Assembly (NCBI GenBank): GCA_001552015.1
Contig: CP010514.1
Span: forward strand, 90,001 to 122,000
Length of the DNA: 32,000 bases
Direction of reading: 5' to 3'
From: Candidatus Nanopusillus acidilobi
GTDB taxonomy: Archaea > Nanobdellota > Nanobdellia > Nanobdellales > Nanobdellaceae
Numbering within the stretch: position 1 is the first letter of the stretch; the number at the start of each line of letters is the position of its first letter. A program made the position numbers and the translations under genes. Below the pieces are notes generated by a model, which ran no database searches, was not told where the DNA came from, and saw only the letters and a program-made list of their open reading frames with translations. Shown here in pieces: positions 1 to 31,300 of this stretch.

Positions 1-1330
1 TATTTTTATTAATATCTCCTAAGTAAACTAAAGGACATTCTTTTCCAACAATAATTCCATTTACATTTTGTATATTATCATATACACCAGTTGGGCAATT
101 TATTGTATCTCCGTTTAAATTATATTCACAGAAAGGATCTGCTGCTAAGAATACATAATCTGGTTCTCCGCTTGTATTTAAAAATGAAATATATAATCTT
201 ATTACCTCATGCCATGGATAATCAATGAATACTTGCTGACAATTTGGTGGTATATCTACTACACCTCTATAAAATGCTCCAACAATTAATTCCTGATTAC
301 CCGGATTAGCCTGATTACCTTCGCAAAGAGAATTGCCTATATAATATGTACCAAATTCTTCTTGGCATGCTTCATTTAAATATTGTTGTGGGATTATAAA
401 TTCTGCTAATCTATTTATATCAGTAGCAGTTCTATAAATAGGAGGACCTTGATAATAATAAGGTATAGATGTTAGATATTGATTATAAGTTTCAGGGCAT
501 TGTTCTGTATTATAAATACATAAATATCCGGAAAAGAAATTAGGCAAACTAGAGTTAGGTTGTGCTGGCGTACTATCTCCGCCTATATAATTTGGAAATA
601 AATTCCATTCATCCTGTGGACAATATACAGAAGCGTTTGTAAAATTATAATTTGGAAATATTTCCGTTAATGGCGTACAGTATCCATTTTGTACGGCTTG
701 AGATTGAGATAGATCATTATATAATGCTGGTAAGCCCCATAAACTTACTGACGCAGATTGATGAAATGGCGCTGTTGCATTTACCCATCCTGCTCCATAT
801 AAAGTTTGACTTACCGGTATATTAATATTTTCTGTATAATTATTTACAAAGAAATATGTATAATTCCATTCATACCATTGTGTACCGTCAGGATCCGGTG
901 GAGGATTCATTGAACAAGGATCCCAATTTCCAATATTACCAGCTACTATAAACATTTGAACAATCCATCCTGTTACTGGTGGGATAAAATATATTGTAAG
1001 GTTCCATCTATTTCCATATATATTATCAAAGTAATTTATCAAATCTTCTGATATGTTTGTACATGTATTTTGATTTATACAATATGTATCATTTCCAGAA
1101 GATGAAAAATATGATAATAAAAATGCATAGGATAAATTAACATTATTGTCATAAATATATGGTAATAAATCAAGGCTATTTTGAATTGTTAATGTATATT
1201 GATTTTCTACATTATATGTTTGTGTTATTTTAGAGTTAGAGCTAGTAGTTAATAGATAAACTAAAAGAATTGATAAAATTATTATTGAAATAATAATAAC
1301 AAATGTTAATGTATTTATCTGATTTTTCAT
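1..1330 (-). CDS. Cys-rich secreted or membrane-anchored protein of unknown function; 5' end complete, 3' end beyond the window (about 443 codons visible)
   Basis: ATG at 1330..1328 overlaps the TGA stop of the upstream ORF (ATGA). My manual translation (MKNQINTLTFVIIISIIILSILLVYLLTTSSNS...GIIVGKECPLVYLGDINKN) stays open to position 2. It is absent from the ORF track, apparently because it is edge-truncated. It has an N-terminal hydrophobic helix, many Cys and many N-x-S/T sequons. No family recognised. Confidence 0.6.
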   Translation of the reverse strand, partial: MKNQINTLTFVIIISIIILSILLVYLLTTSSNSKITQTYNVENQYTLTIQNSLDLLPYIYDNNVNLSYAFLLSYFSSSGNDTYCINQNTCTNISEDLINYFDNIYGNRWNLTIYFIPPVTGWIVQMFIVAGNIGNWDPCSMNPPPDPDGTQWYEWNYTYFFVNNYTENINIPVSQTLYGAGWVNATAPFHQSASVSLWGLPALYNDLSQSQAVQNGYCTPLTEIFPNYNFTNASVYCPQDEWNLFPNYIGGDSTPAQPNSSLPNFFSGYLCIYNTEQCPETYNQYLTSIPYYYQGPPIYRTATDINRLAEFIIPQQYLNEACQEEFGTYYIGNSLCEGNQANPGNQELIVGAFYRGVVDIPPNCQQVFIDYPWHEVIRLYISFLNTSGEPDYVFLAADPFCEYNLNGDTINCPTGVYDNIQNVNGIIVGKECPLVYLGDINKN

Positions 1331-2151
1331 TTTAGATAATATAAAAGTATAATTAGGCCTATTATTATAATTACTATTACTATTGCTGCTGGCAAAATCA
1401 AATTGACGTTATTTATTTTATTACTTACATTTGGTTGTGGATAAATTAATTGTTGGGTACTATTTGTTAAATTTACTTCAGTTTGATTTATGCATTCAAA
1501 TACTCCTGTACATGATATATATACAATATTTGGTGGTGGACATTGCTGTAAAAATTCTTGATATAACTGATTTAATGAATAATTATATGGACATCTAAAC
1601 CAATCTCCTTCAAAAGATAAGTTTTCTGGGCAATATCCGCATTGATATTCTATTTTATATACATTCAATACTGATTGATATGATTCATTATTTGTTAAAT
1701 AAGATTGAGGTATATATGGAGGATTAAAACATGGATAAATCTGATTTGAACATGGTTGATAATACCATGGTGTATTTGAACAATTTAGTAAACTATTACA
1801 TAATGTTGGTACAGGTATAATTATGTCTTGATATGCTGATGGAGGAATTAATGCATATGGACTAACTAATGTTCCATTTGGATATTCGCAATAACTACTA
1901 TTTACATATATTAATCCATAATGGGCGCAAAAAGAATATTGGGGTGATACATTATTTTCATAATATTGTAAAGCATTAAAGTATGTACCATTTATAATAC
2001 AATAAGAACCTGTACTATTTGTATAATATGTTCCTCCTCCGTATTCACAATAAACTGCAAGTGGATTTCTCATAGAATATATATTATAAGATAAAATTAA
2101 GAAAGAGATTATAGATAATATTACTAAATATTTATTGTGAAAGAGTGACAT
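1327..2151 (-). CDS. Cys-rich (14 Cys), sequon-dense exoprotein with an N-terminal signal/anchor and a C-terminal TM anchor
   Basis: 274-aa ORF. N-terminus KYLVILSIISFLILSYNIYS; C-terminus LILPAAIVIVIIIIGLIILLYYLK. About 15 N-x-S/T sequons. It overlaps the upstream protease gene by 20 nt and the downstream gene by 4 nt. No family recognised. Confidence 0.6.
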   Translation of the reverse strand: MSLFHNKYLVILSIISFLILSYNIYSMRNPLAVYCEYGGGTYYTNSTGSYCIINGTYFNALQYYENNVSPQYSFCAHYGLIYVNSSYCEYPNGTLVSPYALIPPSAYQDIIIPVPTLCNSLLNCSNTPWYYQPCSNQIYPCFNPPYIPQSYLTNNESYQSVLNVYKIEYQCGYCPENLSFEGDWFRCPYNYSLNQLYQEFLQQCPPPNIVYISCTGVFECINQTEVNLTNSTQQLIYPQPNVSNKINNVNLILPAAIVIVIIIIGLIILLYYLK

Positions 2152-3583
2152 TTTGGATTGCGATTATATAGTAGGGAAATGTTAGGCCATAAGGAGATTG
2201 ATCAAATGGTACATACATATATCCATCTTGTATCCAATAAACACCTCCACATTCTACTTCTGTTGTGTTAAAAACCGATTGTAGATAATTATTACAATCC
2301 TGATAATTTTTATATAGTTCACCGCATAGACTAAGATTGTCTGGTCCAAGCGCTGGTACTCCGTTTGTAGTAAAAACTATACAGCCCGTAATATTTCCCC
2401 ATTGATTCTCAAATATCCAACAATCCTGTGTTCCATATACTTCTCCGCATAGTTGAGAATATGCAGTATCGCCAGTAGTATAGCCAACTAATAACATGGC
2501 ATGTCCAGAATTGGATGCTATTTGACTTGGATATGGCCCACCGCTTCCTGCTAGAAATCCAGCAGCTACTAATGGTCCATAGCATAATAAGTCCTGGATT
2601 ATCTGTTGATCTGATAAGGGTCCATTTTCAGATAAGTAAATAACGCCTTCTGGGTAATATAGTGGAAAAGTAGGTCCATTATAATTGTGATTACATACAT
2701 CACCTGGATAGCTTTGATTAAAGTTCTGTGAACAATTATATAAAGTAGAATCATAATAGTTCCATCCTTGATCAGGTGGAATTCCATATTGAGATGCAAA
2801 AAATATAGCAGAGTATGGATCACCTTCATTACAACCTTCGTTTATACTACAATATCCTGGAGTATTTGGATAACCATTATTACATTCTATTGCTAAATAT
2901 GCTGGAGATAATGTTAATTCTTCATTAGGTTCATTATTTCTTATCATATATATTGAAGCAATTCCATTTGAAGATGCAAATGCCCAACAATCTCCGCATT
3001 CTCCCTGATCTCCTATTGGAGGTAAATAGTCATTTCCATTTACATCACCCCAGAAAAAGCTTGTTTGTCCATTATATGTAAATAAACATTGTGAATTTTG
3101 ATTATTATTTGGAGAGTTTTGATTATTTTCTGAGGTTATATATACAAGAGTTCCACTTGGTAAATATTGATTAAATATATTAATTGAATTTTGAAGATTT
3201 GTTGTAATAAAAACAGTATTATTTGTACTAACAAGGTATATATAATTATTTGGATATAGAAAACTCACATTTTGATTATTATATAATGTTATATTCTTGT
3301 AAAAATTAATTGTATAATTATTGTTATCATATTGTATTATCAATTCTGTACCATTTGTATATAATAAAACTCCATTTGGTATATTAACTTTTATATAATA
3401 TGTACCTTGAATACTATTTATTGTATTTTGTAAATTCTGTAAACTGTTAATAAAATTTTCAAATATATATTCTTCCTGTTCTTTTTTAATATTTAAAGAA
3501 TATTGATAATATATTAGGAAAGATAATGATATAATTACCAATATTATTGCTATTGAAAGTAAATTTAATTGATTCTTTTTCAT
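2132..3583 (-). CDS. N-terminally membrane-anchored papain-family (peptidase C1) cysteine protease
   Basis: 483 aa. TM helix LLSIAIILVIISLSFLIYY, a beta-rich domain of about 130 aa, an N/Q/S linker (NNQNSPNNNQNSQ), then C1 motifs. These are DQGECGDCWAFAS (Gln193, Cys199; compare papain NQGSCGSCWAFS), SGHAMLLVGY (His361) and WIFENQWG (Asn393). The segment GCNEGDPYSAIFFASQYGI matches the papain GCNGGYP...GI region. Confidence 0.8.
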   Translation of the reverse strand: MKKNQLNLLSIAIILVIISLSFLIYYQYSLNIKKEQEEYIFENFINSLQNLQNTINSIQGTYYIKVNIPNGVLLYTNGTELIIQYDNNNYTINFYKNITLYNNQNVSFLYPNNYIYLVSTNNTVFITTNLQNSINIFNQYLPSGTLVYITSENNQNSPNNNQNSQCLFTYNGQTSFFWGDVNGNDYLPPIGDQGECGDCWAFASSNGIASIYMIRNNEPNEELTLSPAYLAIECNNGYPNTPGYCSINEGCNEGDPYSAIFFASQYGIPPDQGWNYYDSTLYNCSQNFNQSYPGDVCNHNYNGPTFPLYYPEGVIYLSENGPLSDQQIIQDLLCYGPLVAAGFLAGSGGPYPSQIASNSGHAMLLVGYTTGDTAYSQLCGEVYGTQDCWIFENQWGNITGCIVFTTNGVPALGPDNLSLCGELYKNYQDCNNYLQSVFNTTEVECGGVYWIQDGYMYVPFDQSPYGLTFPYYIIAIQNVTLSQ

Positions 3584-3618
3584 TATGATCTAATAATATT
3601 TAAAAATTTTAAAAAATT

Positions 3619-4059
3619 TTAACTTGGATTTTCTATATAAATTGTTACCTGTGTTGGAGATGTTTTTTCGACAAGTAATGGAATTTTTTCATTTGGATTT
3701 CCATATGATAATTCATAAAATAATCCTGAAGTATAATATTGAATCATATTATTTGTTGTATTTATTATTACATTGCATGGTATTGTATAATTATAATATT
3801 TATCATATATATAACAACTTAATAAGTTGTTATTACTGTAAATATAATTTAAATATTTGTTTATTTCAATGTTAATATATACTCCTGTTCCATTGTTAGA
3901 ATAACATACTTCTTCAACTGTAGAATATAGATTTTGGCATGAATATATATCTTGATATAATAATTGGGTCTGATTATTTATATTAGCAAATTTAAAATAT
4001 AAATATATAGATAAACCAAAAGCAATGATTGTTACAACTATCCAAAACCAATTTTCCAT
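3619..4059 (-). CDS. Small N-terminally anchored Cys-pair protein (pseudopilin-like candidate), paralog 4
   Basis: 146 aa. N-terminal helix WFWIVVTIIAFGLSIYLYF. 4 Cys arranged as SCQ-x10-C and SCY-x13-C. It sits in the coupled operon. Confidence 0.55.
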   Translation of the reverse strand: MENWFWIVVTIIAFGLSIYLYFKFANINNQTQLLYQDIYSCQNLYSTVEEVCYSNNGTGVYINIEINKYLNYIYSNNNLLSCYIYDKYYNYTIPCNVIINTTNNMIQYYTSGLFYELSYGNPNEKIPLLVEKTSPTQVTIYIENPS

Positions 4060-4061
4060 TT

Positions 4062-4475
4062 TTATCCCTGGACATTAATATAGACATAATTTCCTGCCGA
4101 ATATACTAATATATATTCTCCAGTATTTATATTATAATTACAATTTTGCATTACTACATTTGGATCTATACTACTTACATTATTTATTAAATCCTGACAT
4201 GTAAATGGGTTTCCCTGATAGTTAATTAAATAGCAAAGACCCCGGGCTTTTTTATAATAACATGATACTACATCCATTGCAACATCTTGTATTGAAGTTA
4301 CATTTGTTTCTACTACAGTTTGTGTATTATTATATTTTGGCATTATACTACTAATGTAAGAAGTTATATTTCCTTTTAATAAAAATATTATTCCTAAAAT
4401 TACCAATGTAACAGTTATTCCAATAATTATTAAAAATGTATAATTTATTGGAAGTTCTTGTGACTTTATTGCCAT
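4062..4475 (-). CDS. Small N-terminally anchored Cys-pair protein (pseudopilin-like candidate), paralog 3
   Basis: 137 aa. MAIKSQELPINYTFLIIIGITVTLVILGIIFLL. 4 Cys (SCY-x8-C, TCQ-x19-C). There is a 2-nt gap to the next gene. Confidence 0.55.
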   Translation of the reverse strand: MAIKSQELPINYTFLIIIGITVTLVILGIIFLLKGNITSYISSIMPKYNNTQTVVETNVTSIQDVAMDVVSCYYKKARGLCYLINYQGNPFTCQDLINNVSSIDPNVVMQNCNYNINTGEYILVYSAGNYVYINVQG

Positions 4476-4945
4476 ATTACAATATAACTATTGTTGTATA
4501 TTATAAATATGCTATTATATGGATAAATATTTCCATTATTATTATTTAAATGAAATATAATATTATTTGGATTAAATTCAGTATAATTTTGCACATATTG
4601 AATTAATATTGATGAATTCAAAGTAATATTTTCATCTATATAAACATCATAACATACATTAAATAATTTATCTGTATTTACATTATTATTATAGCAATTT
4701 AATATTAATCCTATTATATCTGAATAAATTGTATCATTGCTTTCATTTGTATAAATAATATTTATTGAAGAAGGATAATATTTTTCACATGATGGGGAAA
4801 AACCACCTTGTGATATTAATGTTTGACAATAATATGCTTGAGAATTACTAAAAAATTTTGTATAAATAATATCTAATATAACTACAACAGATATTATCGC
4901 TATTATTATTATAAATATGGTATCTATTGTTATATCGTTCTTCAT
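4466..4945 (-). CDS. Small N-terminally anchored Cys-pair protein (pseudopilin-like candidate), paralog 2
   Basis: 159 aa. MKNDITIDTIFIIIIAIISVVVILDII. 4 Cys (YCQ-x12-C, NCY-x14-C). It overlaps its neighbours by 10 nt and 4 nt. Confidence 0.55.
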   Translation of the reverse strand: MKNDITIDTIFIIIIAIISVVVILDIIYTKFFSNSQAYYCQTLISQGGFSPSCEKYYPSSINIIYTNESNDTIYSDIIGLILNCYNNNVNTDKLFNVCYDVYIDENITLNSSILIQYVQNYTEFNPNNIIFHLNNNNGNIYPYNSIFIIYNNSYIVIWQ

Positions 4946-5226
4946 ATATAATTAATACTTCCATTATAAATATATATAATTCTATAGCCAGAGGGAATTG
5001 TTATTCCATTTATTGTACAATTTTCACTAAGAAATACTTTAATATTTATTATTTCCTGAAAACTTTTATTATATAGGTCTTCTAGTTGTTGACAATTAAT
5101 AATTTGTATACTATTTCCTCCCAAATTATTTTTTACATTATAAATATAATAAAAAGAAAATAAACCGGCAATTATAATTAATATAAAGGTTATTATAATC
5201 CAATATATTGATTGCTGTAATCTCAT
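4942..5226 (-). CDS. Small N-terminally anchored Cys-pair protein (pseudopilin-like candidate), paralog 1
   Basis: 94 aa. MRLQQSIYWIIITFILIIIAGLFSFYYIY. 2 Cys (NCQ-x24-C). ATGA overlaps on both sides. Confidence 0.5.
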   Translation of the reverse strand: MRLQQSIYWIIITFILIIIAGLFSFYYIYNVKNNLGGNSIQIINCQQLEDLYNKSFQEIINIKVFLSENCTINGITIPSGYRIIYIYNGSINYI

Positions 5227-7193
5227 AATTGTATATTTATTGGTAAATATGGGCCAAATACTGTATATACTATTAATATTCCTATTATTGAAAATATTAC
5301 ATAAAATATTGTTCCAAACAATAAGTTTTTACCTATATAATATGATGTCATTGTTTTATCAAATCCATATTTTATTCCTGCGCTCATATATGAAGTTATT
5401 ATTACATATTCTATAAAAAATATACCAATTATTGCTTCAAAGAATGTTGGTGGTATTAAATTATATAGATTAAAGGTATTTGCAACGAAATTATATAGAT
5501 TAGCTCCACTACCTAAACCAAAGGATTGATCTATTAATTGAAAGAAATATGCAAGTGCAAAAAGCATTGAAACTATTCCGTTATTAAAAACTGTAACCAT
5601 TGCAGAAATTAATGGTACTAGATTTTTTGATGTAATATCTATCAATCCAATTACTTCATTTAATATCTTTCTTACATTATATCTTATGCTATCTACATTT
5701 TCTAAATTTGTTGATATATTATATGCAATCTTTGATAAAACTTCAGGACCTTTTGATGAAGAAGTAACTAAAAGTTGCATGGATTCCCTTACTAATTTTG
5801 ATGGATATAGATTTAATGAACCAATTTTTGGATCAAATATAGAAGTATTTAAATCATAGCCTCTTCTTAAATTATATAATGTTGTTTTTAGGAAATTTTC
5901 CATAACTCCAGAGGATTTTATTATTCTATAATTATAGTATGTTTTTTCAACTACCATTTCAAATGGATAGCCATCTTCTAATAATGATGCAAACTCATAT
6001 ACAACAATTGGGAATTCATTTTCTATTTCTTCAATTTGATATATTTTCTTAACTCTTTGGAAAGATGTTAAATAATAATAGGATCCTATACCCAAACCCA
6101 ATCCTAAAGGTAATGCTAAAGTTAAAACAGAATATATTAATGCTCTATCTTGATAAACTATATTTAAATAATCACTTAAGAATCCTTGTGGAATAGATGT
6201 AATTTTTATAGCTAAAGAAATTAAATGATATATTCCTAAAATTGCAATTGATCCCAATATTATTGAAATTATTATTGCTGGAATTTCATTATCTCCAATT
6301 TTAAATCTTCCAGGTTTTGGTAGATCTCTTGCTAAAGATAAATCTGGAACAGAAAATGCAAATGGGTTCTTTGATAAAAAGTTCTGAATTATTAAAAATG
6401 TAATAACTGGTAAAATTATTATATATGAAAATGCTATGAAATAGAAACTTACAGTATTTAATAAAAATACAGATATTATTGGTAACATAATCAAGCTAAC
6501 TATTGGAAGCATTACTAAGAAAGATACAATAACTGTTGCTGGTTCTTTTAAAGCATCTACATATAATTGAGATTTTTCTAATGATTTCTTCAATACCCAT
6601 CCTAATATTCTATCTAATAATTTGTTTATATCATCAATAGAATTCTTATATTTAATATTTACAATATGAGTCATTGCATATACAAAATCTGGGCTTAGAT
6701 AAAACCATCTTCTTTGATAATATTCTAATGCAGATTCAATATCATTAAATTTATTTGTTTCTAAATTATATAATAATGATTTAAAGTCTGTTGCAATATA
6801 ACCCTTCATATAATATGCTACATATTTTATTCCATTTTCCAAATTAGGATTTCTTTTTAGATATAATGATAAATATAATATTATCCATATAACTTCTGAT
6901 GTTACTTGTATTCTAACAATTTGTGTATAGAATATTGGATAATATGCAAAATAAAATGATAATATCAATAAAGAAATTAATAAAGAAAAAGCTAATTGAA
7001 AGCTAACAAAACTTAAAATAAAATATATAATTATAGAAAATAATGTTAGGGTTATTACAGAAGAAAATATATTATCTGGATTTGTATTTAGTCTATTTAA
7101 CCATAAATGAAATGCATATTTTTTATATATAGAATCAGGGGCTTTTAATTTTATTAAATTAAAATTATTATAAAAATATTCAAAAAAACTCAT
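5223..7193 (-). CDS. Polytopic membrane protein, candidate type IV pilus / T2SS / archaellum platform protein (PilC/TadC/FlaJ-like, two T2SS-F-like repeats)
   Basis: 656 aa with many TM helices. Two soluble helical segments follow the remembered T2SS-F pattern. They are EVIWIILYLSLYLKRNPNLENGIKYVA...DIESALEYY...SPDFVYAM and EFPIVVYEFASLLEDGYPFEMVVEK...LYNLRRGYDLNTSIF...YPSKLVRESMQLLVTSSSKGPEVLSKIA. Each is followed by TM helices. The gene lies directly downstream of a pilin-like gene. The assignment rests on pattern recognition only, not on an HMM score. Confidence 0.5.
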   Translation of the reverse strand: MSFFEYFYNNFNLIKLKAPDSIYKKYAFHLWLNRLNTNPDNIFSSVITLTLFSIIIYFILSFVSFQLAFSLLISLLILSFYFAYYPIFYTQIVRIQVTSEVIWIILYLSLYLKRNPNLENGIKYVAYYMKGYIATDFKSLLYNLETNKFNDIESALEYYQRRWFYLSPDFVYAMTHIVNIKYKNSIDDINKLLDRILGWVLKKSLEKSQLYVDALKEPATVIVSFLVMLPIVSLIMLPIISVFLLNTVSFYFIAFSYIIILPVITFLIIQNFLSKNPFAFSVPDLSLARDLPKPGRFKIGDNEIPAIIISIILGSIAILGIYHLISLAIKITSIPQGFLSDYLNIVYQDRALIYSVLTLALPLGLGLGIGSYYYLTSFQRVKKIYQIEEIENEFPIVVYEFASLLEDGYPFEMVVEKTYYNYRIIKSSGVMENFLKTTLYNLRRGYDLNTSIFDPKIGSLNLYPSKLVRESMQLLVTSSSKGPEVLSKIAYNISTNLENVDSIRYNVRKILNEVIGLIDITSKNLVPLISAMVTVFNNGIVSMLFALAYFFQLIDQSFGLGSGANLYNFVANTFNLYNLIPPTFFEAIIGIFFIEYVIITSYMSAGIKYGFDKTMTSYYIGKNLLFGTIFYVIFSIIGILIVYTVFGPYLPINIQL

Positions 7194-7198
7194 TACAT

Positions 7199-7960
7199 TT
7201 AGCTTGTTACACTTGGTATATTATTTAACTGAGAATATGGTACCTGCAATAAGAATTGACATAATGGCATTCCATTAACATTATTATTTATACCCAATGC
7301 TGTGCAATTTCCAGTTACTGTTAATATTCCATTACTAACTGTTAAATTCAAATTACATCCATCTGCAGTATTATAATAGTTAGCAATATCCAATAATGCA
7401 CCAAATACCTGATTTGTAATCCATGTTGGTAATTGTGCAGAACATTGTACTGGACCTGGATTTAATATTTGTGATGGAGAAGAAATATAAATATTTTCTT
7501 GTCCATTTGTTACATTAAAATATGTAGCAGAAGAATAATTTCCAAATACATAACTTGTTGCTTGTTCTGGATTATAATATAAATTATCAATATAATTCTG
7601 GCATTCTAAATACATGCAATCAAGAGGTGATATAGAATATCCTTCATATTGACATTGACTAGAAGAACCTCCATATAATTGTAATACTACACTACATGGA
7701 ACAGCATTTGAACAAACATAATATCCAGGACTTGTTTGTACAAGTCCATTTCCTATATCTTCATACTTTGTACAAAATGTATATGGGCTTGAACAATAGC
7801 TTGAACAATCTGAAACTGCCTGTTGTATTTGAGTATTTGATATTTGGCTAATCTTTGAAGATTGTTGCTGGAATAATTTAATTACAATCACTGCCACTAC
7901 TAACATTATTATTATTACAAATATTATTTCTACAGCCATATCTATACCTCTCTTTTTCAT
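7199..7960 (-). CDS. Type IV pilin-like protein with a class III (prepilin-type) signal peptide and a Cys-rich (12 Cys) globular domain
   Basis: 253 aa. N-terminus MKKRG|IDMAVEIIFVIIIMLVVAVIVIKLF: a basic stretch, Gly, then a hydrophobic helix with Glu at about +6. First gene of the operon. TTTATAAA lies about 23 nt upstream of the ATG. Confidence 0.6.
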   Translation of the reverse strand: MKKRGIDMAVEIIFVIIIMLVVAVIVIKLFQQQSSKISQISNTQIQQAVSDCSSYCSSPYTFCTKYEDIGNGLVQTSPGYYVCSNAVPCSVVLQLYGGSSSQCQYEGYSISPLDCMYLECQNYIDNLYYNPEQATSYVFGNYSSATYFNVTNGQENIYISSPSQILNPGPVQCSAQLPTWITNQVFGALLDIANYYNTADGCNLNLTVSNGILTVTGNCTALGINNNVNGMPLCQFLLQVPYSQLNNIPSVTS

Positions 7961-7996
7961 AATTAAGGATAAATATTTTATTCTTTATAAATATTT

Positions 7997-8404
7997 TTAA
8001 TAATATATTACAAATTCCATATCCTTTTCTTTCCTCAATTCTTCTATTAATTTTCTGTCAATATCAATAGCACTCTTATTTGAATTTATTGCCAAAGTTC
8101 TATCGTCAATATAATTACTCTTTCTTATAACAATACTTCTATCATTTGTTAATAATAAATTTTTTGAACCATATGCAATTATATCATCTATCAAATCATC
8201 AACTTTAATTACAATCTTTATTTTTCCTTCATTTAATAAATGATATTTAAGATCTTCTGGTAGATCTTTTACAGAATAATTTGCATTTATCCCAATTATG
8301 CAATCTCCTCTTTCAGTTAAAAAATTATCCTTAGTAATTTCTAGAGTACTTTTATGTGTTGCTTTTATTAATTTATTTCCCCTAGCTTTTATTACTAATT
8401 TCAT
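7997..8404 (-). CDS. Conserved archaeal protein, DUF371-like
   Basis: 135 aa. The motif THKSTLEITKDNFLTERGDCIIGINA matches my recollection of the DUF371 signature (H..T.E.TKD..LT..GDCIIGV). Not verifiable here. Confidence 0.45.
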   Translation of the reverse strand: MKLVIKARGNKLIKATHKSTLEITKDNFLTERGDCIIGINANYSVKDLPEDLKYHLLNEGKIKIVIKVDDLIDDIIAYGSKNLLLTNDRSIVIRKSNYIDDRTLAINSNKSAIDIDRKLIEELRKEKDMEFVIYY

Positions 8405-9233
8405 TTAAGTAATTTAATATTTCTCTTGTAACATTTCTATTTAAATATTTGTCAAATCCTTCATATTGAAATATATGATGTAAATCTATTAAATAATATT
8501 GATTGTCTTTTAATAATAGATCAAATCCAAATATTTGTAAGTCGCATTTTTCCATAATTTTATATCCAATATCTATTATTTCTTCATCCAATTCATATGG
8601 TCTTCCATATCCTCCCTGACTAATATTTGCCTTAAAACTATTTTTATTAATTCTCTGCATTGCACCAATTGGTTTTCCTACAAAAATTACCCTTATATCT
8701 CTCTCATAAGGTATATATTTTTGAAATATTAGATGTTTTAAATTTATTTTCTTTTCTAATAAATATTTTTCCAAAAAATTATATAATTCTTTTTCATTAT
8801 CTATTTTGTGTACAAATTCTCCTCTATGAGCAAACTGATGCTTTATTACCATTGGAAATCCTATTTTATTTATTACATATTCTATGTTATCTATTGAGTA
8901 TATTTTCACAAATTCTGGAATCTTTACATATTTATTAAGAATGCTATAAAATAAAGTTTTTGATATTATAGATTCTTTAGTATGTATGCTATTTATTACT
9001 TTTTTTCCATTTTTTTCAAGATATTTTGCTAGAAAGTGTATATCTGATAAAAAAGTTGATCCAATGAAAAAGTAATATACATCATAGTTTAATATTTTTT
9101 CATTATATGGAAATATATTGTCCTTTTCTATATCAATAATGCTAATGTTATTATAATTTTTTATTTCCTCTTTCAATCTTATCATTCTATAATCTTCTAA
9201 ATCAGTTTTTACGAATATGGCTACTCTACCCAT
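8382..9233 (-). CDS. ATP-grasp ligase, RimK/LysX-like
   Basis: 283 aa. GFPMVIKHQFAHRGEFVHKI (compare PvVvKP..GS.G.GV), DIRVIFVG..IGAMQR...FKANISQGG (compare DiRv.vvG..v.am.R...fr.N...Gg) and IFGFDLL. It overlaps the DUF371 gene by 23 nt. Confidence 0.65.
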   Translation of the reverse strand: MGRVAIFVKTDLEDYRMIRLKEEIKNYNNISIIDIEKDNIFPYNEKILNYDVYYFFIGSTFLSDIHFLAKYLEKNGKKVINSIHTKESIISKTLFYSILNKYVKIPEFVKIYSIDNIEYVINKIGFPMVIKHQFAHRGEFVHKIDNEKELYNFLEKYLLEKKINLKHLIFQKYIPYERDIRVIFVGKPIGAMQRINKNSFKANISQGGYGRPYELDEEIIDIGYKIMEKCDLQIFGFDLLLKDNQYYLIDLHHIFQYEGFDKYLNRNVTREILNYLNEISNKS

Positions 9234-19520: not shown

Positions 19521-20882
19521 ATGTTACCTGTATATGATATTAATAGGATTGTTTTTGCATCATCTCTTGCTATACATATTATAATAGCATCAATTACAAT
19601 TGGAATGCCCTTTGCAATTGGAACATTAGAATTATATGGAATATTAAAGAAAGATGAAAGTATAAAAAATTTAGCTCAAAGAATATCGACATTAATATTA
19701 GTTTTATTTGCAATAGGAACATTGTCTGGTACAATTGTTGCTCTTGAAATGTATATATTATTCCCAAAATTTATGCAAATAGTGAGTAATACAGCAATTA
19801 TATCATTATATATAGAAATTTTAGCATTCTTCATGGAATCTTTATTTGTAGGTATATATTTCTACTCATTTAAAAAATATAATAATTCGATATTACATCC
19901 AATATTTATGTATTTAATTGGAATATTTGCAGCGATGTCTGGTTTTTTAATAATAACATTAAATGCTTTTATGAATTATCCTGTAGGAATTGAATATTTG
20001 AATGGTCAATATATTGATATAAATCCATATTCCATATTTTTTACTCCAATAGAATTTATTGAAGTATTTCATGGAATTTTAGCATCATTAGAATTTGGTT
20101 TATCAATATTTGTATTAGTTATTTCCTATAAAATATTGAAAGAAAAGGATATTGAAAATATAAAAATATATGGAAAAGCTTTGAAATTAGCAATTCTCAT
20201 ATTATTCTTATCAATATTATTATTAGGAGTATCAGGAATAAATTCAGCAGATACATTAGCAAAATATCAACCAGTTAAGTATGCAGCATTAGAGGGCAAT
20301 TTGAATGGAAATATTTCTAATGCACCTGAAAATTTATTTGGAATTGTTACAAACAATTATACATTAATTGATTCAATAAAAATTCCAAATTTGCAAAGTT
20401 TATTATTATATGAGAGTTTTAATCCAAATACAATTGTTCCTGGAATATATGCAAATGAGTCTTATATACCTTCACCAAATGATATTACTATAGCACATAA
20501 TTCTTTTGATATAATGGCAATATTTGGATTCTTAATATTCTTTATATCATTATATGGATTGATCTCTTTAATAATTTCAAAAGAAGATAAAAAAGATAAA
20601 AAATTTAGTTTAAATCCAAAATATACATTTTATATGAATAAATTATTATTATATGGATTAATATTATTATCTGTATTATCTTTAATTTCCTTGGAAACTG
20701 GATGGGTTGCTGCGGAAGTTGGAAGGCAACCATGGACAATATATGGAATACTATTAACAAGAGATGCTGCAAATTTAAATCCGGGAGTTGTTCCTATTGC
20801 AATAGCTTTTGAATTAATATATATATCATTATTTGTTTTATCTATATGGGCTATAAAAAGATATTTTATTAATAAATTATGA
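19521..20882 (+). CDS. cydA: Cytochrome bd-type quinol oxidase subunit I
   Basis: 453 aa, polytopic. The signature GWVAAEVGRQPWTIYG matches the CydA GW..E.GRQPW motif. Confidence 0.85.
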   Translation: MLPVYDINRIVFASSLAIHIIIASITIGMPFAIGTLELYGILKKDESIKNLAQRISTLILVLFAIGTLSGTIVALEMYILFPKFMQIVSNTAIISLYIEILAFFMESLFVGIYFYSFKKYNNSILHPIFMYLIGIFAAMSGFLIITLNAFMNYPVGIEYLNGQYIDINPYSIFFTPIEFIEVFHGILASLEFGLSIFVLVISYKILKEKDIENIKIYGKALKLAILILFLSILLLGVSGINSADTLAKYQPVKYAALEGNLNGNISNAPENLFGIVTNNYTLIDSIKIPNLQSLLLYESFNPNTIVPGIYANESYIPSPNDITIAHNSFDIMAIFGFLIFFISLYGLISLIISKEDKKDKKFSLNPKYTFYMNKLLLYGLILLSVLSLISLETGWVAAEVGRQPWTIYGILLTRDAANLNPGVVPIAIAFELIYISLFVLSIWAIKRYFINKL

Positions 20883-21775
20883 TAAACTATTCATTTTACT
20901 TTTATACATATATATTTTTAATTGCAGCGACAATCTTATTACTTATAGGAATAGAAATAGCCTTGGCATTATCATTCTTTATAAATAAGGATGTATATAA
21001 AAAATATGAAAATTTGTTTTTATCAATGTGGGAAATAACAGGTACATCAATTGTTTTCTTTGTAGTACAATATGAAGCTTTATTACCATCATTATTGGTC
21101 CCTGTTGCATATTCATTTTATCCACTAATATTTATTATATTATTTTTATTTATATTTAGAAATATTGGAATAGGGTTTTTTGAAGGAAAAAGTATAAATA
21201 AGGAATATAGTAAAAGAGATATATTAATATATTTATTTGGAACCTTGATAATGGCAATATTATTTCTTTCTATATTATCTGCAGCTATTACTGGTTATGG
21301 TATTAAAATTGTAAATGGAAATATTGTTTGGGGGCCTTCTATTATATTTAATTACTTTACATTATTATTGTTGTTATCAACAATATTATTTGTTTTAGGT
21401 ATTCTTGGATATATATTTAATGTAAAGAAGTTTAAAATATATGGATTAGTAGGATATTTGTTAGTATTCTTGGATATATATTTATATGAAAATACAATAC
21501 CTTATCTATTCTTTTTTCCACTAATAATATTACTAATATTAACATTTGTGAATTTAAAGGATATTGTACAAAGAATATTATTCATAATTTCTCATTATTT
21601 GAATGCAATGATATTATCAACATTATTATTTCCATATATATTTGGAACAATTAATATAAATTCATTATTATCTCAAAGCTTGCCATTATTATTTGCAGAA
21701 TTTATAGTATCAATTATAATAACAATAGTAGTAATTGGAATATATTATTTTGAAATAAAAACAATTTTAAGCTAG
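20879..21775 (+). CDS. cydB: Cytochrome bd-type quinol oxidase subunit II (divergent)
   Basis: 298 aa, polytopic. ATGA-coupled to cydA. Only weak motif similarity (LSMWEITGTSIVFF versus P.WdgNE.WL). The call is mainly by context. Confidence 0.55.
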   Translation: MINYSFYFYTYIFLIAATILLLIGIEIALALSFFINKDVYKKYENLFLSMWEITGTSIVFFVVQYEALLPSLLVPVAYSFYPLIFIILFLFIFRNIGIGFFEGKSINKEYSKRDILIYLFGTLIMAILFLSILSAAITGYGIKIVNGNIVWGPSIIFNYFTLLLLLSTILFVLGILGYIFNVKKFKIYGLVGYLLVFLDIYLYENTIPYLFFFPLIILLILTFVNLKDIVQRILFIISHYLNAMILSTLLFPYIFGTININSLLSQSLPLLFAEFIVSIIITIVVIGIYYFEIKTILS

Positions 21776-22602
21776 CTTTCAAAAACTTTATTATATATCT
21801 CTTTTAATTGGTTTGGAACAACGTGAGTATATATTTGTGTAATATTTAATGAGCTATGTCCTAGTATTTCTTGTATATATCTTATATCAACGCCTTTTGA
21901 TAATAATGTTGTTGCAAGAGAGTGTCTTAATACATGTGGAGTTACTTTTTTATTTATTCCAGCTTTCTTTGCAATATTTTTTATAATTCTTTCAACCTGT
22001 CTTGATGATAATGGAAATATATTTTCAGTATTTATTTTATTTATATAATCTTTTAATTCATTTAACAATCCTTTTGGTATTGGTACTATTCTTTCTTTAC
22101 CGCCCTTTCCATATACTTTTACAAAACCTTCTTCAAAGATTATATCATTCTTTTTTATTTTTATTAATTCGGAAACTCTTACTCCAGTATAAAATAGGAA
22201 TTTAATAATTAGTTTATCTCTATAATTTTCAGCATTTTCTAATAATCTATTTAATTCATCATATGTAATAAATTTTGGTAATCTTTTATCTACCTTTGGA
22301 GCTTTTATTTGCTTTGCTAAACTTTCATTATCTAAAAATTTTAAAAAAGATGATATAGCTCTAACATATAATCTTAATGAATTTGAATCTAGTTTTTTCT
22401 TAACCTTTAATTCAGCTAAAAATTTTAGAATTATATTCTTATCTAATGAACTACTAATAGATTTTGTATCTGTAATAATTATTCCATTATTTATTAGAAA
22501 TTCTAAAAATTTCTTTGTTATACTAGAATATGTTTTTATTGTATTTTTAGATTTTCCCTGTATTTCCAGCCATACTTTATATTCTTCAATAATTTCATTC
22601 AT
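21772..22602 (-). CDS. xerA: Tyrosine recombinase, XerA/XerC/XerD-like
   Basis: 276 aa. N-terminal SAM-like core-binding domain. Catalytic residues in TGVRVSEL, GKGGKERIVP, HVLRHSLAT, LGHSSLNITQIYTHV (R-K-HxxR-H-Y). Confidence 0.85.
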   Translation of the reverse strand: MNEIIEEYKVWLEIQGKSKNTIKTYSSITKKFLEFLINNGIIITDTKSISSSLDKNIILKFLAELKVKKKLDSNSLRLYVRAISSFLKFLDNESLAKQIKAPKVDKRLPKFITYDELNRLLENAENYRDKLIIKFLFYTGVRVSELIKIKKNDIIFEEGFVKVYGKGGKERIVPIPKGLLNELKDYINKINTENIFPLSSRQVERIIKNIAKKAGINKKVTPHVLRHSLATTLLSKGVDIRYIQEILGHSSLNITQIYTHVVPNQLKEIYNKVFES

Positions 22603-22661
22603 TTATATTTCAGAAACTTTGTGATATAAAAATTTTAAATAATAAAAATATTATAATTTTA

Positions 22662-22713
22662 TCCCTACCTGCCATGCACTGGGGATATATGAACCAGTTC
22701 CTCCAGGTAGGGG
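22662..22713 (+). ncRNA. GC-rich imperfect hairpin immediately 5' of the C/D box sRNA (unassigned structured RNA element)
   Basis: Outer stem CCCTACCTG (22663-22671) pairs with CAGGTAGGG (22704-22712). Inner stem ACTGG (22678-22682) pairs with CCAGT (22694-22698). There is an asymmetric internal loop and an 11-nt apical loop. Local GC is far above background. A TTTTAAATAA box lies at 22633-22642. Confidence 0.3.
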
Positions 22714-22715
22714 AG

Positions 22716-22772
22716 AAGAATGATGTGGTTGGCTTGAAACTGAAAAATGATGAATACGGCTACGCTGATAAA
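22716..22772 (+). ncRNA. Archaeal C/D box sRNA (2'-O-methylation guide)
   Basis: C box AUGAUGU at 22720-22726, a 13-nt guide GGTTGGCTTGAAA, and D' box CUGA at 22740-22743. Then a 3-nt spacer, C' box AUGAUGA at 22747-22753, an 11-nt guide ATACGGCTACG, and D box CUGA at 22765-22768. This is the canonical C-guide-D'-C'-guide-D layout and size. The element is intergenic. Confidence 0.65.
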
Positions 22773-22775
22773 AAT

Positions 22776-23405
22776 TTATAATATAATGCTTTCCATAATA
22801 TTTTTGGCTTTAGAAGCATATTTTTCATATTTTTCTGAATATTCATCAAATATATTATAAAGCAAGTCTCTATCATAACCATGTTTTCTCATTAAATAAG
22901 TTAGAATTCCTATATCATTTAAGTCTTTTTCTTCTTTTCTTCTTAAATAAGTAAATATTTTATCTACTAGTAAATATTCCATTCCAGCAACATATAATTT
23001 TATTATCTTTTTACCTAGCTTTAATTCTATTATATTATATGGTACTTCTTTATCTTTAAATAATATACTTATGCTTGGTCCATATTTATATTTAATTTCA
23101 ATTCCATCGTACCCAAATATTCTCCCCTCCTTAATTGATAAATCTGATAATTTTCCATATATTATTTCTTTTGCTTTTGTTTCCTGATTTTCATTTATTA
23201 TGAAATCTATATCTTTAGTTTCTCTATTATAATTTTCATTATAATATTTTGCATATGCAGCTACAGCCATTCCGCCTATTAATATTGGTTTTATATCATA
23301 ATCACTAGCAAATGCTTTTAATATACTTTCAAGGTTTTTTATTGTAAGCTTATCAGTTAATTTATAACTTTCCTTTGATATGTCTTGTGATGTTATATGC
23401 GGCAT
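22776..23405 (-). CDS. Predicted nucleotidyltransferase (MNT-fold; AbiEii / DUF2204-like)
   Basis: 209 aa. ILIGGMAVAAYAKYY...RETKDIDFII fits the GG-x(n)-[RK]-x-[ST]-x-D-[IL]-D NTase motif of AbiEii-type proteins. There is a helical C-terminal half. No partner ORF is adjacent. Confidence 0.45.
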   Translation of the reverse strand: MPHITSQDISKESYKLTDKLTIKNLESILKAFASDYDIKPILIGGMAVAAYAKYYNENYNRETKDIDFIINENQETKAKEIIYGKLSDLSIKEGRIFGYDGIEIKYKYGPSISILFKDKEVPYNIIELKLGKKIIKLYVAGMEYLLVDKIFTYLRRKEEKDLNDIGILTYLMRKHGYDRDLLYNIFDEYSEKYEKYASKAKNIMESIIL

Positions 23406-28238: not shown

Positions 28239-28311
28239 GGTTCGATTATCATGAATGGTTAAGGTTATTAACAATCATAGTTTTATATTGGACAATGTTT
28301 TCTAATATCTT

Positions 28312-31300
28312 ATGGATATAAAGAAAATATCATATTTTACCATAGTAAGCTTTCTATTGTTGATTTCTACGTTTAATATATATTCACAAGTCGGAGCAAA
28401 TGTTGTTGGAAGTAATAGTGCTCAAACAAATAGTATAGCATTACCTCAAGGAAATATATATTATTGTATTGCTGCATCAGATTCTGATGTATATCCTATA
28501 TTGATATCAAATACTCAAAATATTCCAACTCCTTCTCCATTCCAGCAAGATATAGCAGTATGTAATGGAAGTATAAATATTGGTAATAATTTTGCATATA
28601 TAAATAATGTAACATTATTTAATCAAATAGATTCAAATGGACAGAATGTATATTTTGTAAATAGTTCTGGAAATATTTTATATTCATGGTATGAAGGTCA
28701 ATTAAATTATAATGGAGTTACTTGTGATGTTTGGTGGATAAATATACCTCAAGGAATTCCAGCAAATTCAGGTGTAACTATTTATATGTATATAGGATCC
28801 AATAGTTCTAATTATTACCAACAATATTATCCATATGTTGGTGCACCTATACAAGTTTTAGGTACTTCTCAATATGATAATGGACAAAAAGTATTTAATT
28901 ATTATCAAAACTTTGGAAATTTGGGTTCCTTACCTTCACCATGGACTTATGTATATAATAATCAAAATAGTGCTTCTTTTTCTACAAATTATACAATTAT
29001 TCCATCTCCTTCTTCTGGTTATAACGAAGGTATTACTACTACAAATAATTATAATTTACAAAATAATATATTAGAAATTTATACTTCTGTTCCAACTACT
29101 AGCGGTACGAGTTGGGATTATACAGATTTAGGAGTAGGTGATGCAAATAATAGAAATACATATTTTGTTGGTGGCGGAGGTGGGCTTATAGCTGGTGGTA
29201 ATAGTAATGGTGCTGCATTTTCATATAGTAATATAGGAACCGCTGGTGAGTTTAAATTATTTGTAGGAACTTCTAATGTAGGAAGTACACCATATAGTTA
29301 TGTTCCAACAATATATGAAATTGGATTTTCTAGTAGTTATACTTATTTCTTAGTAAATTATACTCAAATATTAAGTACTACAACAATACCTGGTTCATTT
29401 AGTTTACCAATAACAATAGGGCAACAAAACTCAGGTAATAATATATACTTATATTGGGTTTTATTAAGATCATTGCCACCAAATGATGTAATGCCTTCAA
29501 TTTCTTTATTATCTAATACAATAACTCCAAACTTTAATGTATTAGTAGAAAATTCAAATTCTATAATAGGAGAATCAAATAATAATATATGCTCCTTTAA
29601 TTCACAAAATTTATATAATGTAATAGGAGGTATTTCAATAGATAATTATTCTACTCCAGTAATTTTATATAATTCAACATATACATATACAACAACAACT
29701 ACTCAGACAATATCATTTAATGTACAAAAGCAAAATGAAACAGTATTAATTTTATTATCATTATCGGGCAATGGGATAAATGGTGGATATATGAGTAGTG
29801 TAGCATTACCTACTGGATGTTCTCAATTATTCTTAACTTCTTCAGGAAATTCTGCTAGTGTATATGCTGCAGAATGTAGGGATTTATCTCCAGGTAGTTA
29901 TAGTGTTTCATATACTATTAATTCAAATCAAGGATCTTATGTTTCTATATTGGTATTAGGATTTCCAGTATTTACTTTTGATATTACAGGACCAAATAGT
30001 ATAGCTGTTTATACAAATTATAGTAATTCTACAACAATATATGTAAATCAATTAACAGGAAATACTGCTTTGCCAGTTACTCTTTCTTGTTCAACAAGTA
30101 ATTCAAATCTACAATGTTCATTATCTAATACCACTGTTACTCCAAATGCATCAGTAACTTTAACCGTTACTGCATCATCATCATCAATTACCCCAGGAAC
30201 ATATTCAGTAACAATTTCAGGTACAGCGCAAAATGGAGTTACGAATTCTACTACTATAACAGTTAATGTACAACAATTATATAATAACCCACAAATATAT
30301 ATTATATCCCCATCTAATAATTCAGTATCAAATTATTATCAACTAAATATATCATTCTATACAAATTATCCAAATGTAAATGTAACAATAAATGGACAAA
30401 CATATAATATAAATGTAACACCAGGTAATAATATTATTCAATTAAATTATGAAAATTCATCATATAATTTACCAGGATTATATAATATTATACCAAATGG
30501 AGGAAATATTACAATAGAATTATCAACATCGAATCCTGAGGGAATAACAAATTCAACAGGAATATATGTTTATACATTACCTTCACCAATATTTAATGTA
30601 TCATATACATATCCTACACCATCAAATGGTACACAAGAAAATATATGGTTATTAGAAGTTAGTGCAAATGTATATGATAATACTTTAGGTCAAGATTATT
30701 GTCAAATACAATTATTAAATCAAACAAGTAATCAATGGGTAACAATAATTAATTCATGTTCAGATATATTATATAATGGAATATTACAAGAATATGCAAA
30801 ATTAAATAGTAATGGATATTATTCAATATGGTATAAAGTATATGCATATAATAATTATGGATTAAATCAATATACAAATCCCCAGGTAATATATATATCA
30901 CAAAATGCATATAATGTATCAGTAATAAATCCAACATTAAGTAATACACAAATACAAGGAATAATAGATTCAGCAATTAATAGTTCTATACCTGTAGTAG
31001 TATTCTCTCCAGGAGTATATTTAGTAAACTTAATAATAAACCCACAAGGTCAAAATATAACATTATTAGGACAAAATACAATATTTGAACCTGCAAATCC
31101 AGGATTACCTGTTATAGATGTATTATCATCAAATGTAACAATACAGAATATAAATATTAATACAAATCTATTTGCAATAAATGTAGAAAATGGAACTATT
31201 AATTTAATAAATGATAATATAAATTCAGGATTGTTTGGAATAGATGTAAAGAATCCATCAGTAGTAAATGTATATAATTCTACAATAAATGGAAATATAG

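Follow-up and report, generated by a model that had tools for sequence, protein, structure and literature searches.

What does an archaeal operon do that joins a pilin-like protein and a filament platform to a papain-family protease, with no assembly ATPase beside them? The question is raised by a minus-strand gene cluster at the left end of a 32,000-nucleotide stretch of the Candidatus Nanopusillus acidilobi genome (contig CP010514.1, positions 90,001 to 122,000; hereafter, the window; G+C ~25%), in which an earlier reading of the letters alone, here called the original prediction, had recognized an envelope operon of nine coupled genes. Gene sequences and their context support the view that the locus is a type IV filament-type module, and on balance we favor reading it as the form that a DPANN-wide type IV filament (TFF) system takes in the Nanopusillaceae, with an ATPase that would act in trans. 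The operon products are currently annotated entirely as 'hypothetical'.

The nine open reading frames (ORFs), O1 to O9, lie on the minus strand as originally described (7960-7199, 7193-5223, 5226-4942, 4945-4466, 4475-4062, 4059-3619, 3583-2132, 2151-1327, and 1330-<1), with the same overlaps, three of them ATGA, one of 10 nt, and one of 20 nt; the spacing from O1 to O9 runs +5, −4, −4, −10, +2, +35, −20, and −4 nt. What did not hold is the limit of nine genes. In relatives the operon runs on past window position 1 and comprises 12-13 genes: a full-length O9 (484-552 aa) is followed by O10 (~400 aa, polytopic, without Cys in most copies, and with no Pfam family), O11 (~410 aa, 22-24 Cys), O12 (~215 aa, 8 Cys), and, in some relatives, O13, a polytopic paralog of O10 (~350 aa), likewise with no Cys in most copies and no Pfam family. 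At one related locus, L011, the cluster stops before an arginase gene of opposite orientation.

The order of the genes, whose conservation the original prediction proposed as a check, is kept in nine Nanopusillaceae lineages down to 54% identity of the platform and 40% of the protease. The platform O2 shares 93% identity with proteins from two Ca. Nanopusillus metagenome-assembled genomes (MAGs) and 77% with YN1_4460 of the cultivated Nanobdellota strain YN1, which carries the operon (YN1_4460 and neighbours). Identity of window proteins to their YN1 counterparts is 81-85% for the large RNA polymerase subunits, 68% for O1, 58-70% for O3-O6, and 44-54% for the protease, O8, and O9, the protease and O8 diverging fastest (44-47%). 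This gradient from the platform to the distal genes fits distal products that face the outside world.

A divergent platform protein and a putative pilin

O2 (5223-7193, minus strand) is a polytopic protein of 656 aa with no Cys. Its placement as a divergent two-repeat member of the T2SSF/TadC/FlaJ platform family is well supported by remote and transitive homology and by context, because four independent lines agree: PF00482 matches within its family, a profile match to GspF, an internal repeat, and the adjacency of its homologs to ATPase genes. With a profile of O2 homologs, 1228 cluster representatives were detected, and for 501 the match reached E<1e-30. PF00482 matched 12 of the 25 family members sampled (5 above the Pfam gathering score) and covered both halves of the protein, at residues ~106-246 and 398-513; the halves of O2 also align with each other in register (hhalign P=2.4e-4), so the two T2SS-F-like repeats of the original prediction stand. 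When a broader O2-family profile was compared with the PDB, the top match was the cytoplasmic domain of GspF (2vmb, E=5.8e-4), in an alignment that spans the G-x-P-x-E signature of the second repeat, and G408, P410, and E412 are invariant in the O2 family. The AlphaFold 2 (AF2) model of O2 is all-helical, with a predicted local distance difference test (pLDDT) score of 85 and a predicted template modeling (pTM) score of 0.83.

Distant DPANN homologs of O2 (26-29% identity, E ~1e-52 to 1e-65) supply the context. In three distant DPANN lineages (L003/L004/L005; the Woesearchaeota locus L010; and L014) the coding region of the homolog begins at, or within, the stop codon of a gene for a ~770-aa PF00437 T2SSE ATPase; L015 is a second contig carrying the L014 protein, and its upstream gene is without Pfam data. 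In these ATPase-platform loci the platform is followed by many Cys-rich proteins with class III signals of the form MKKRG↓Q or MKSQG↓LPM (arrow, cleavage site). Such loci resemble the Nanopusillus operon in their homologous platform and in Cys-rich pilins with MKKRG/MKSQG N-termini, but they differ in that the ATPase gene overlaps the platform gene, in that the cleavable KRG↓Q or SQG↓L is kept, and in that none has a C1 protease. As observations in their own right, L003 (7698-22046) and L010 (7507-16955) each encode the ~770-aa ATPase with a long N-terminal extension next to the platform, and in L003 there is also a gene for a protein of 1092 aa that has 34 Cys and a class III-type signal, with some dozen small, Cys-rich paralogs of the pilin (MKSQG↓LPM...) arrayed in tandem behind it. 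Pfam assigned no family to the canonical pilins of L003 and L010.

O1 (7199-7960, minus strand), the first gene of the operon, encodes a protein of 253 aa that begins MKKRG↓IDMAVE, continues into a 22-residue hydrophobic helix, and has 12 conserved Cys; we regard it as the putative major filament subunit. The class III prepilin-type N-terminus first read in this protein was confirmed at the level of the motif, since the cleavage motif is conserved in nine lineages as [KR]R[G/A/S]↓[IVL][DE]MA[VI][EQ], ahead of a near-invariant 22-residue hydrophobic helix. Position −1 takes small residues only (Gly in three, Ala in three, and Ser in two of the related lineages sampled). At its N-terminus O1 resembles the KRG↓Q pilins encoded behind the Woesearchaeota ATPase-platform pair (phmmer E=9e-7, small database). 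O1 had no match in Pfam, and its family profile none in the PDB; archaeal pilins usually lack sequence relatives in both.

Cysteine-rich accessory proteins and a papain-family protease

Downstream of the platform come four small proteins, each with an N-terminal helix and all encoded, like the genes after them, on the minus strand: O3 (4942-5226; 94 aa, 2 Cys), a candidate minor pilin-like or anchored accessory protein, O4 (4466-4945; 159 aa, 4 Cys), O5 (4062-4475; 137 aa, 4 invariant Cys), and O6 (3619-4059; 146 aa, 4 Cys). O9 (1-1330), of which 443 of ~552 aa lie in the window, is a large Cys-rich protein with a pilin-like MKNQI N-terminus and a putative adhesin or tip protein. The Cys counts given originally for O1 to O8 were reproduced (12, 0 for the platform, 2, 4, 4, 4, 15, and 14). 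Cys makes up 3.42% of the non-platform products and 0.37% of ten housekeeping ORFs in the same window, a 9-fold enrichment that the Cys-free platform does not share, and N-x-S/T sequons number 2.87 per 100 aa in the former against 0.62 in the latter. Each of O1, O3, O4, O5, O8, and O12 has the same, even number of Cys in all six genomes compared, with nearly all positions invariant (in O4, all four), and the count is odd in 31 of 32 protease homologs. This is the pattern expected of structural disulfides plus one free catalytic thiol, and we infer that the operon proteins undergo both disulfide formation and N-glycosylation.

The N-termini of several of these proteins recall class III signals. 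O3 begins MRLQQ in the window, and its YN1 ortholog begins MKSQG, as do the canonical L003 pilins; in O5 the Nanopusillaceae have MKSQE(L/M)P where the L003 pilins have MKSQG↓LPM, the −1 Gly having become Glu. Judged by these motifs, O3 and O5 have N-termini whose descent from the MKSQG↓LP pilin type is plain to see. O7, O9, O11, and O12 begin MK[NS]Q[ILFV]. Profile-profile comparison (hhalign) related the N-terminal module of O7 (O7N) to O9 (93.6%) and O9 to O11 (87.8%); applied to O1, O3-O6, O8, and O12, it found nothing significant beyond the N-terminal helices.

O7 is the papain-family member. Its peptidase domain (residues 166-483; 2135-3088), recognized in the original prediction as Peptidase_C1, is matched by Pfam PF00112 at E=1.6e-17, and its active-site stretch, DQGECGDCWAF, fits the QxxCGxCWAF context. 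The catalytic Cys-His-Asn triad (C199, H361, and N393) does not vary among 32 homologs, 30 of which also have the oxyanion-hole Gln, Q193. Foldseek returned cathepsin B/L and falcipain (E=3e-5), and cathepsins and falcipain were matched in sequence too. The 42 homolog clusters of the protease form one apparent family, whose source-named members are all Nanopusillaceae-type and include the Nst1 'Peptidase C1A'. Ahead of the domain lie an N-module (residues 1-130; 3194-3583) that starts MKKNQ and passes through a hydrophobic helix and a long α-helix into a β-domain, and a low-complexity Asn/Gln/Gly linker (residues ~131-165; 3088-3194). In the AF2 model the N-module consists of a 55-residue helix (residues 3-57) and seven strands (62-127), with pLDDT ~80 for residues 70-110, the predicted shape being the classic pilin 'lollipop'. 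No I29 propeptide was matched in O7, whose N-terminal 165 residues are taken up by the pilin-like module and the Asn-rich linker; this propeptide is typical of C1A zymogens and is not family-defining. Residue conservation and domain matches thus support a genuine, catalytically intact C1 peptidase carried on a pilin-like module.

The original prediction described the protease as hard-wired to the pilus module. It is indeed encoded in the operon of 8 of the 9 lineages, and no such combination is described in the literature that we searched, but 'hard-wired' overstates the case, since the peptidase sits on another module in YN1 and is deleted in L008. A free O6 and an O7N fused to the C1 domain occur in seven lineages (the window, L006, L007, L011, L012, L016, and L017). 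In YN1 a 579-aa protein combines O6, an Ig-like region, a Pro/Ser linker, and Peptidase_C1 (residues 304-500), and O7N is a free-standing ORF of 141-143 aa both there and in L008. In the latter (MAG KM4331-08) the C1 domain is deleted, and only its C-terminal tail is left, fused ahead of O8. An enzyme domain can therefore move between pilin-like modules. The O7 linker is an indel hot spot, ranging from ~10 to >100 residues among close homologs, and such changes would alter the reach of a tethered enzyme.

O8 (1327-2151; 274 aa) combines a Sec-type signal peptide with a C-terminal transmembrane (TM) anchor and contains 14 invariant Cys and 13 sequons, and its gene is always translationally coupled to the preceding one (the protease gene where present), with a 20-nt overlap in the window. 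It is conceivable that O8 is a partner, an inhibitor, or a substrate of the protease. Its N-terminal domain (NPxAVYCEYGGG...) gave a sub-threshold match to DUF333 (PF03891) in 6 of 8 family members. The same domain is duplicated as a separate ORF of 172-175 aa (O8') in YN1 and L008, and the paralog O8' is seen in L008/L009.

That a platform, pilin-like proteins, and a hydrolase share one operon, as in the bacterial type II secretion system (T2SS), might suggest an exporter in which O1 and the small proteins act as a piston and release the protease and the Cys-rich exoproteins to the medium or the host. GspF is also the best solved-structure match of the platform profile. We consider such an exporter very improbable. 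An N-terminal helix or a C-terminal TM segment anchors the supposed cargo in the membrane, so that the protease would be no free cargo; archaea have no outer membrane or secretin; and GspD, GspC, GspL, and GspM were not found in Pfam and NCBIfam scans of the nine products.

Among the genes beyond the window edge, the O10/O13 pair is found at L007 (17596-18807 and 20748-21818), with equivalents in L008, L009, L011, and L012. The C-terminal TM helices of O10 contain four conserved His (LHTR, GIH, IIHG, and YxH), a pattern that recalls bis-haem membrane proteins. O10 and O13 were considered as the missing prepilin peptidase and ruled out, as they have neither a GxGD motif nor a conserved Asp pair.

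Proposed filament assembly and its alternatives

We propose that the ATPase gene has become decoupled from that of the platform and lies at another place in the genome. The 'no ATPase in view' of the original prediction was accurate for the window and would amount to ordinary decoupling, as several T2SSE ATPases are encoded away from the locus in relatives. For the close relative Nst1 five secretion ATPases are listed, of which three belong to clade 2, one to clade 4, and one to the archaellum (Makarova 2016 supplement, PMC4858521), and for a nanoarchaeal ATPase the cognate pilins were not identified (PMC4858521). Jarett et al. (2018; PMC6142677) reported two type IV pilus (T4P) systems plus an archaellum, with four FlaJ/TadC homologs; O2 may be one of these four or a fifth that went unrecognised. 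In YN1 the FlaBDEHIJF genes are separate, its O2 ortholog is annotated as hypothetical, and no Fla/Arl family was matched in the operon by Pfam or NCBIfam.

Several results weigh against a working filament system of this kind. T2SSE ATPase genes were found neither in the window nor within 10 kb of the platform gene at nine Nanopusillaceae loci. An A24 prepilin peptidase is likewise absent from the window, and none was recognised in two nanoarchaeal genomes (PMC4858521). O2 itself had no match in Pfam and NCBIfam scans, and its model, searched with Foldseek against the PDB, had no similar solved structure; the T2SS-F assignment made in the original prediction consequently owes nothing to such a match of O2 and stands on the family profile and context, which offset that negative. 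The AF2 model of the whole O7 is of moderate quality only (mean pLDDT 63). Finally, Gly or Ala at −1 is mostly absent from O3-O7, O9, O11, and O12, and only O1 keeps a small residue there. Prepilin peptidases need Gly or Ala at −1, a requirement reportedly set out by Albers et al. in 2003 and in FlaFind. With the −1 Gly mostly gone, O3-O7, O9, O11, and O12 would stay uncleaved, which would block their assembly into a filament. For O3 to O6, then, the N-terminal helices and even Cys counts of the original prediction stand and the pilin label is uncertain. Going by their N-termini, most of the small proteins may be uncleaved, membrane-anchored base or alignment components and not filament subunits.

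The ATPase homolog search from L003 returned no Nanopusillaceae protein among the best 120 of 4564 matches. An orphan platform without an adjacent ATPase occurs also in another DPANN lineage, L013. A fragment upstream of the L013 platform was considered as an ATPase C-terminus and rejected.

Could the locus be a decayed relic, its ATPase lost, its platform kept as a scaffold or for some other role, and the rest of its products ordinary envelope glycoproteins, signal-anchored (type II) or secreted by Sec, that happen to share an operon, with no assembly of the type IV filament kind? The missing ATPase at the locus in nine lineages, the orphan platform of L013, the −1 Gly gone from most N-termini, and the lack of a recognised prepilin peptidase in nanoarchaea would all follow from decay, and the last two fit each other. 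We nevertheless think a relic decidedly unlikely. In a genome of 0.6-0.8 Mb the platform is conserved nearly like RNA polymerase and still has the invariant T2SSF signature residues G408, P410, and E412, and O1 keeps its G/A/S −1 site and near-invariant N-terminal helix in all lineages. Moreover, relatives assemble archaella (PMC11420986), so some class III processing activity must exist. A type IV filament system would thus be able to lose its ATPase linkage and most of its cleavage sites with the platform still strongly constrained.

The mixture of one canonical pilin and many different subunits can also be read as bindosome-like display, in which the platform and O1 would build a short pseudopilus or raft that organizes proteins with pilin-type N-termini. 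Non-pilin domains do ride on pilin-type N-modules here, as seen with the C1 protease and in the large proteins O9 and O11, and there is a precedent in the Sulfolobus Bas system, a T4P-like machine that places functional, sugar-binding proteins at the surface via pilin-type N-termini (PMC3387779, PMC3047682). Bas substrates, however, keep a cleavable class III signal, which most of the operon proteins lack; no homology to BasABC or BasEF has been shown, no search aimed at it having been made; BasE (ATPase) and BasF are adjacent to each other, and the Bas system involves no protease; and the size of O1 (253 aa), its high conservation, and its place as the first gene are what one would expect of a major filament subunit. 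We regard display of this kind as unlikely, if worth keeping in mind, and continue with the TFF system.

The closest described arrangements are the clade-4 T4P loci of Thermoproteales/Crenarchaeota (PMC4858521; subsystems 4A-4E in 10.64898/2026.04.22.720090), where a TadC/T2SSF-type platform also comes first. Those loci also encode small, fast-evolving putative minor pilins, a large adhesin-like protein with a signal peptide, and an S-layer-like protein with a C-terminal TM segment, and nearly all of their accessory proteins have multiple conserved Cys (PMC4858521). The Nanopusillus locus differs from them in having no ATPase, in a platform too divergent for Pfam, in small proteins mostly without the −1 Gly, and in the papain-family protease on a pilin-like module, which those surveys do not report.

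We envisage the following mechanism. A conserved TATA-box promoter would drive a leaderless operon that supplies one canonical class III pilin (O1), the platform (O2), and then a series of extracellular proteins; these would be disulfide-bonded and sequon-rich, and most would be held by pilin-type N-terminal helices (O3-O7, O9, O11, and O12). The remaining parts would be the C-terminally anchored O8 and one or two polytopic membrane proteins (O10 and O13), and one of the pilin-type modules would bear the papain-fold protease on a flexible Asn-rich tether. O2, driven in trans by a T2SSE ATPase, would pull O1 from the membrane into a surface fiber or short pseudopilus, and the accessory proteins would form the base or tip of the fiber or remain anchored around it. 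Adhesins and protease would thus be placed at the surface, where an obligate ectosymbiont meets the protein S-layer of its host.

Such a host-contact or degradative role may be inferred, and for an ectosymbiont of S-layer-bearing Sulfolobales or Acidilobus hosts contact with the host is plausible. DPANN archaea, including Nanoarchaeota, live attached to hosts, and the operon offers a conserved candidate set for the contact molecules that is present in cultivated co-cultures (YN1 and Nanopusillus/Nanobsidianus relatives). In the Saccharibacteria, which are ultrasmall obligate episymbionts, type IV pili that find and bind the host have been demonstrated experimentally (PMC9894109, PMC12206443); the likeness is a functional analogy only, for those pili are bacterial and have canonical PilB/C/D, and no protease fusion is reported for them.

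Cryo-electron tomography of YN1/YN4 revealed an attachment organelle with a filament, and no genes were named for it (PMC11420986; 10.64898/2026.06.04.730037). The organelle filament diameters, 6.6 and 8.2 nm, are within the archaeal type IV filament range. It is a speculation, to which we give little credence, that the operon encodes the filament and an S-layer-opening protease of this cone-portal-filament organelle; if true, the organelle would be derived from a type IV filament and would serve to pierce the host, with a papain protease as an integral part.

Neither Wurch 2016 nor the two YN1-type papers mention pili genes or a protease. The protease-on-pilin architecture, the cleavage-site loss, and the cryptic platform family have no description in the literature that we searched. 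The platform family, with its >1200 sequence clusters and its DPANN loci wherever a source is named, appears to be new, as do the protease-on-pilin-module architecture with its shuffling between modules and the near-complete loss of cleavage sites beside a strongly conserved platform.

Promoter and neighboring genes

The TATA box that the original prediction placed about 23 nt upstream of the first ATG was confirmed: TTTATAAA lies at 7984-7991 on the minus strand, 23 nt upstream of the O1 ATG. The motif is without overall enrichment in the window (6 copies against 11 expected), and 3 of the 6 copies stand exactly 23 nt upstream of an ATG, those of O1, an arginine decarboxylase gene, and an AbiEii-like gene. 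In 8 related loci the box is kept at −31..−24 within a spacer that has otherwise diverged. Its position and conservation are good evidence for a real archaeal promoter from which a leaderless transcript would begin the unit at O1. The 23-nt spacing implies a leaderless or near-leaderless transcript, and a box at O1 argues against a unit that starts at the genes upstream, a RimK-like ATP-grasp gene and a DUF371 gene. Scans for bacterial sigma-70 promoters and intrinsic terminators gave chance-level results and are irrelevant to an archaeon.

That all nine genes form one transcription unit, as first proposed, is unproven in view of the 35-nt gap between O6 and O7 (3584-3618, minus strand), which holds runs of T6 and T5 and an A/T box. 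In L011 the same gap has a TTTATAAAA box at a spacing equal to that of the O1 promoter. The gap may contain an internal terminator or promoter that divides the unit into O1-O6 and O7 onward.

The RimK-like and DUF371 genes (7997-9233, minus strand) overlap each other. At all Nanopusillaceae loci examined they immediately precede the operon on its own strand and separate it from the divergently transcribed rpoH-rpoB-rpoA cluster. Their adjacency may reflect a functional link or mere frozen synteny.

Farther into the window, a gene for cytochrome bd oxidase subunit I (19521-20882, plus strand; Pfam E=1.1e-90) is overlapped by a 298-aa ORF without a Pfam match (20879-21775, plus strand), presumably a divergent cytochrome bd subunit II. 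The organism is not known to make quinones. Cytochrome bd without known quinone synthesis has already been noted for terrestrial Nanoarchaeota (Jarett et al. 2018, PMC6142677). On the minus strand, at 21772-23405, a tyrosine recombinase gene (Phage_integrase, E=4e-43) adjoins the AbiEii-type nucleotidyltransferase toxin-like gene, whose ATG is preceded by a separate TATA box at 23 nt; this region, which lies between cydAB and the genes for ribosomal proteins L10/L1/L11, may represent a small integrated element or a defence island.

An open frame of >1231 aa (28306-32000, plus strand) runs off the right end of the window. It begins with a Sec signal peptide, MDIKKISYFTIVSFLLLISTFNIYS↓Q, is rich in Ser, Thr, and Asn with many sequons, and passes from Ig-like stretches into parallel β-helix-like NxxxGI repeats, features that probably mark a giant S-layer or adhesin-type surface protein. 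The end of its signal peptide (NIYS) matches that of O8.

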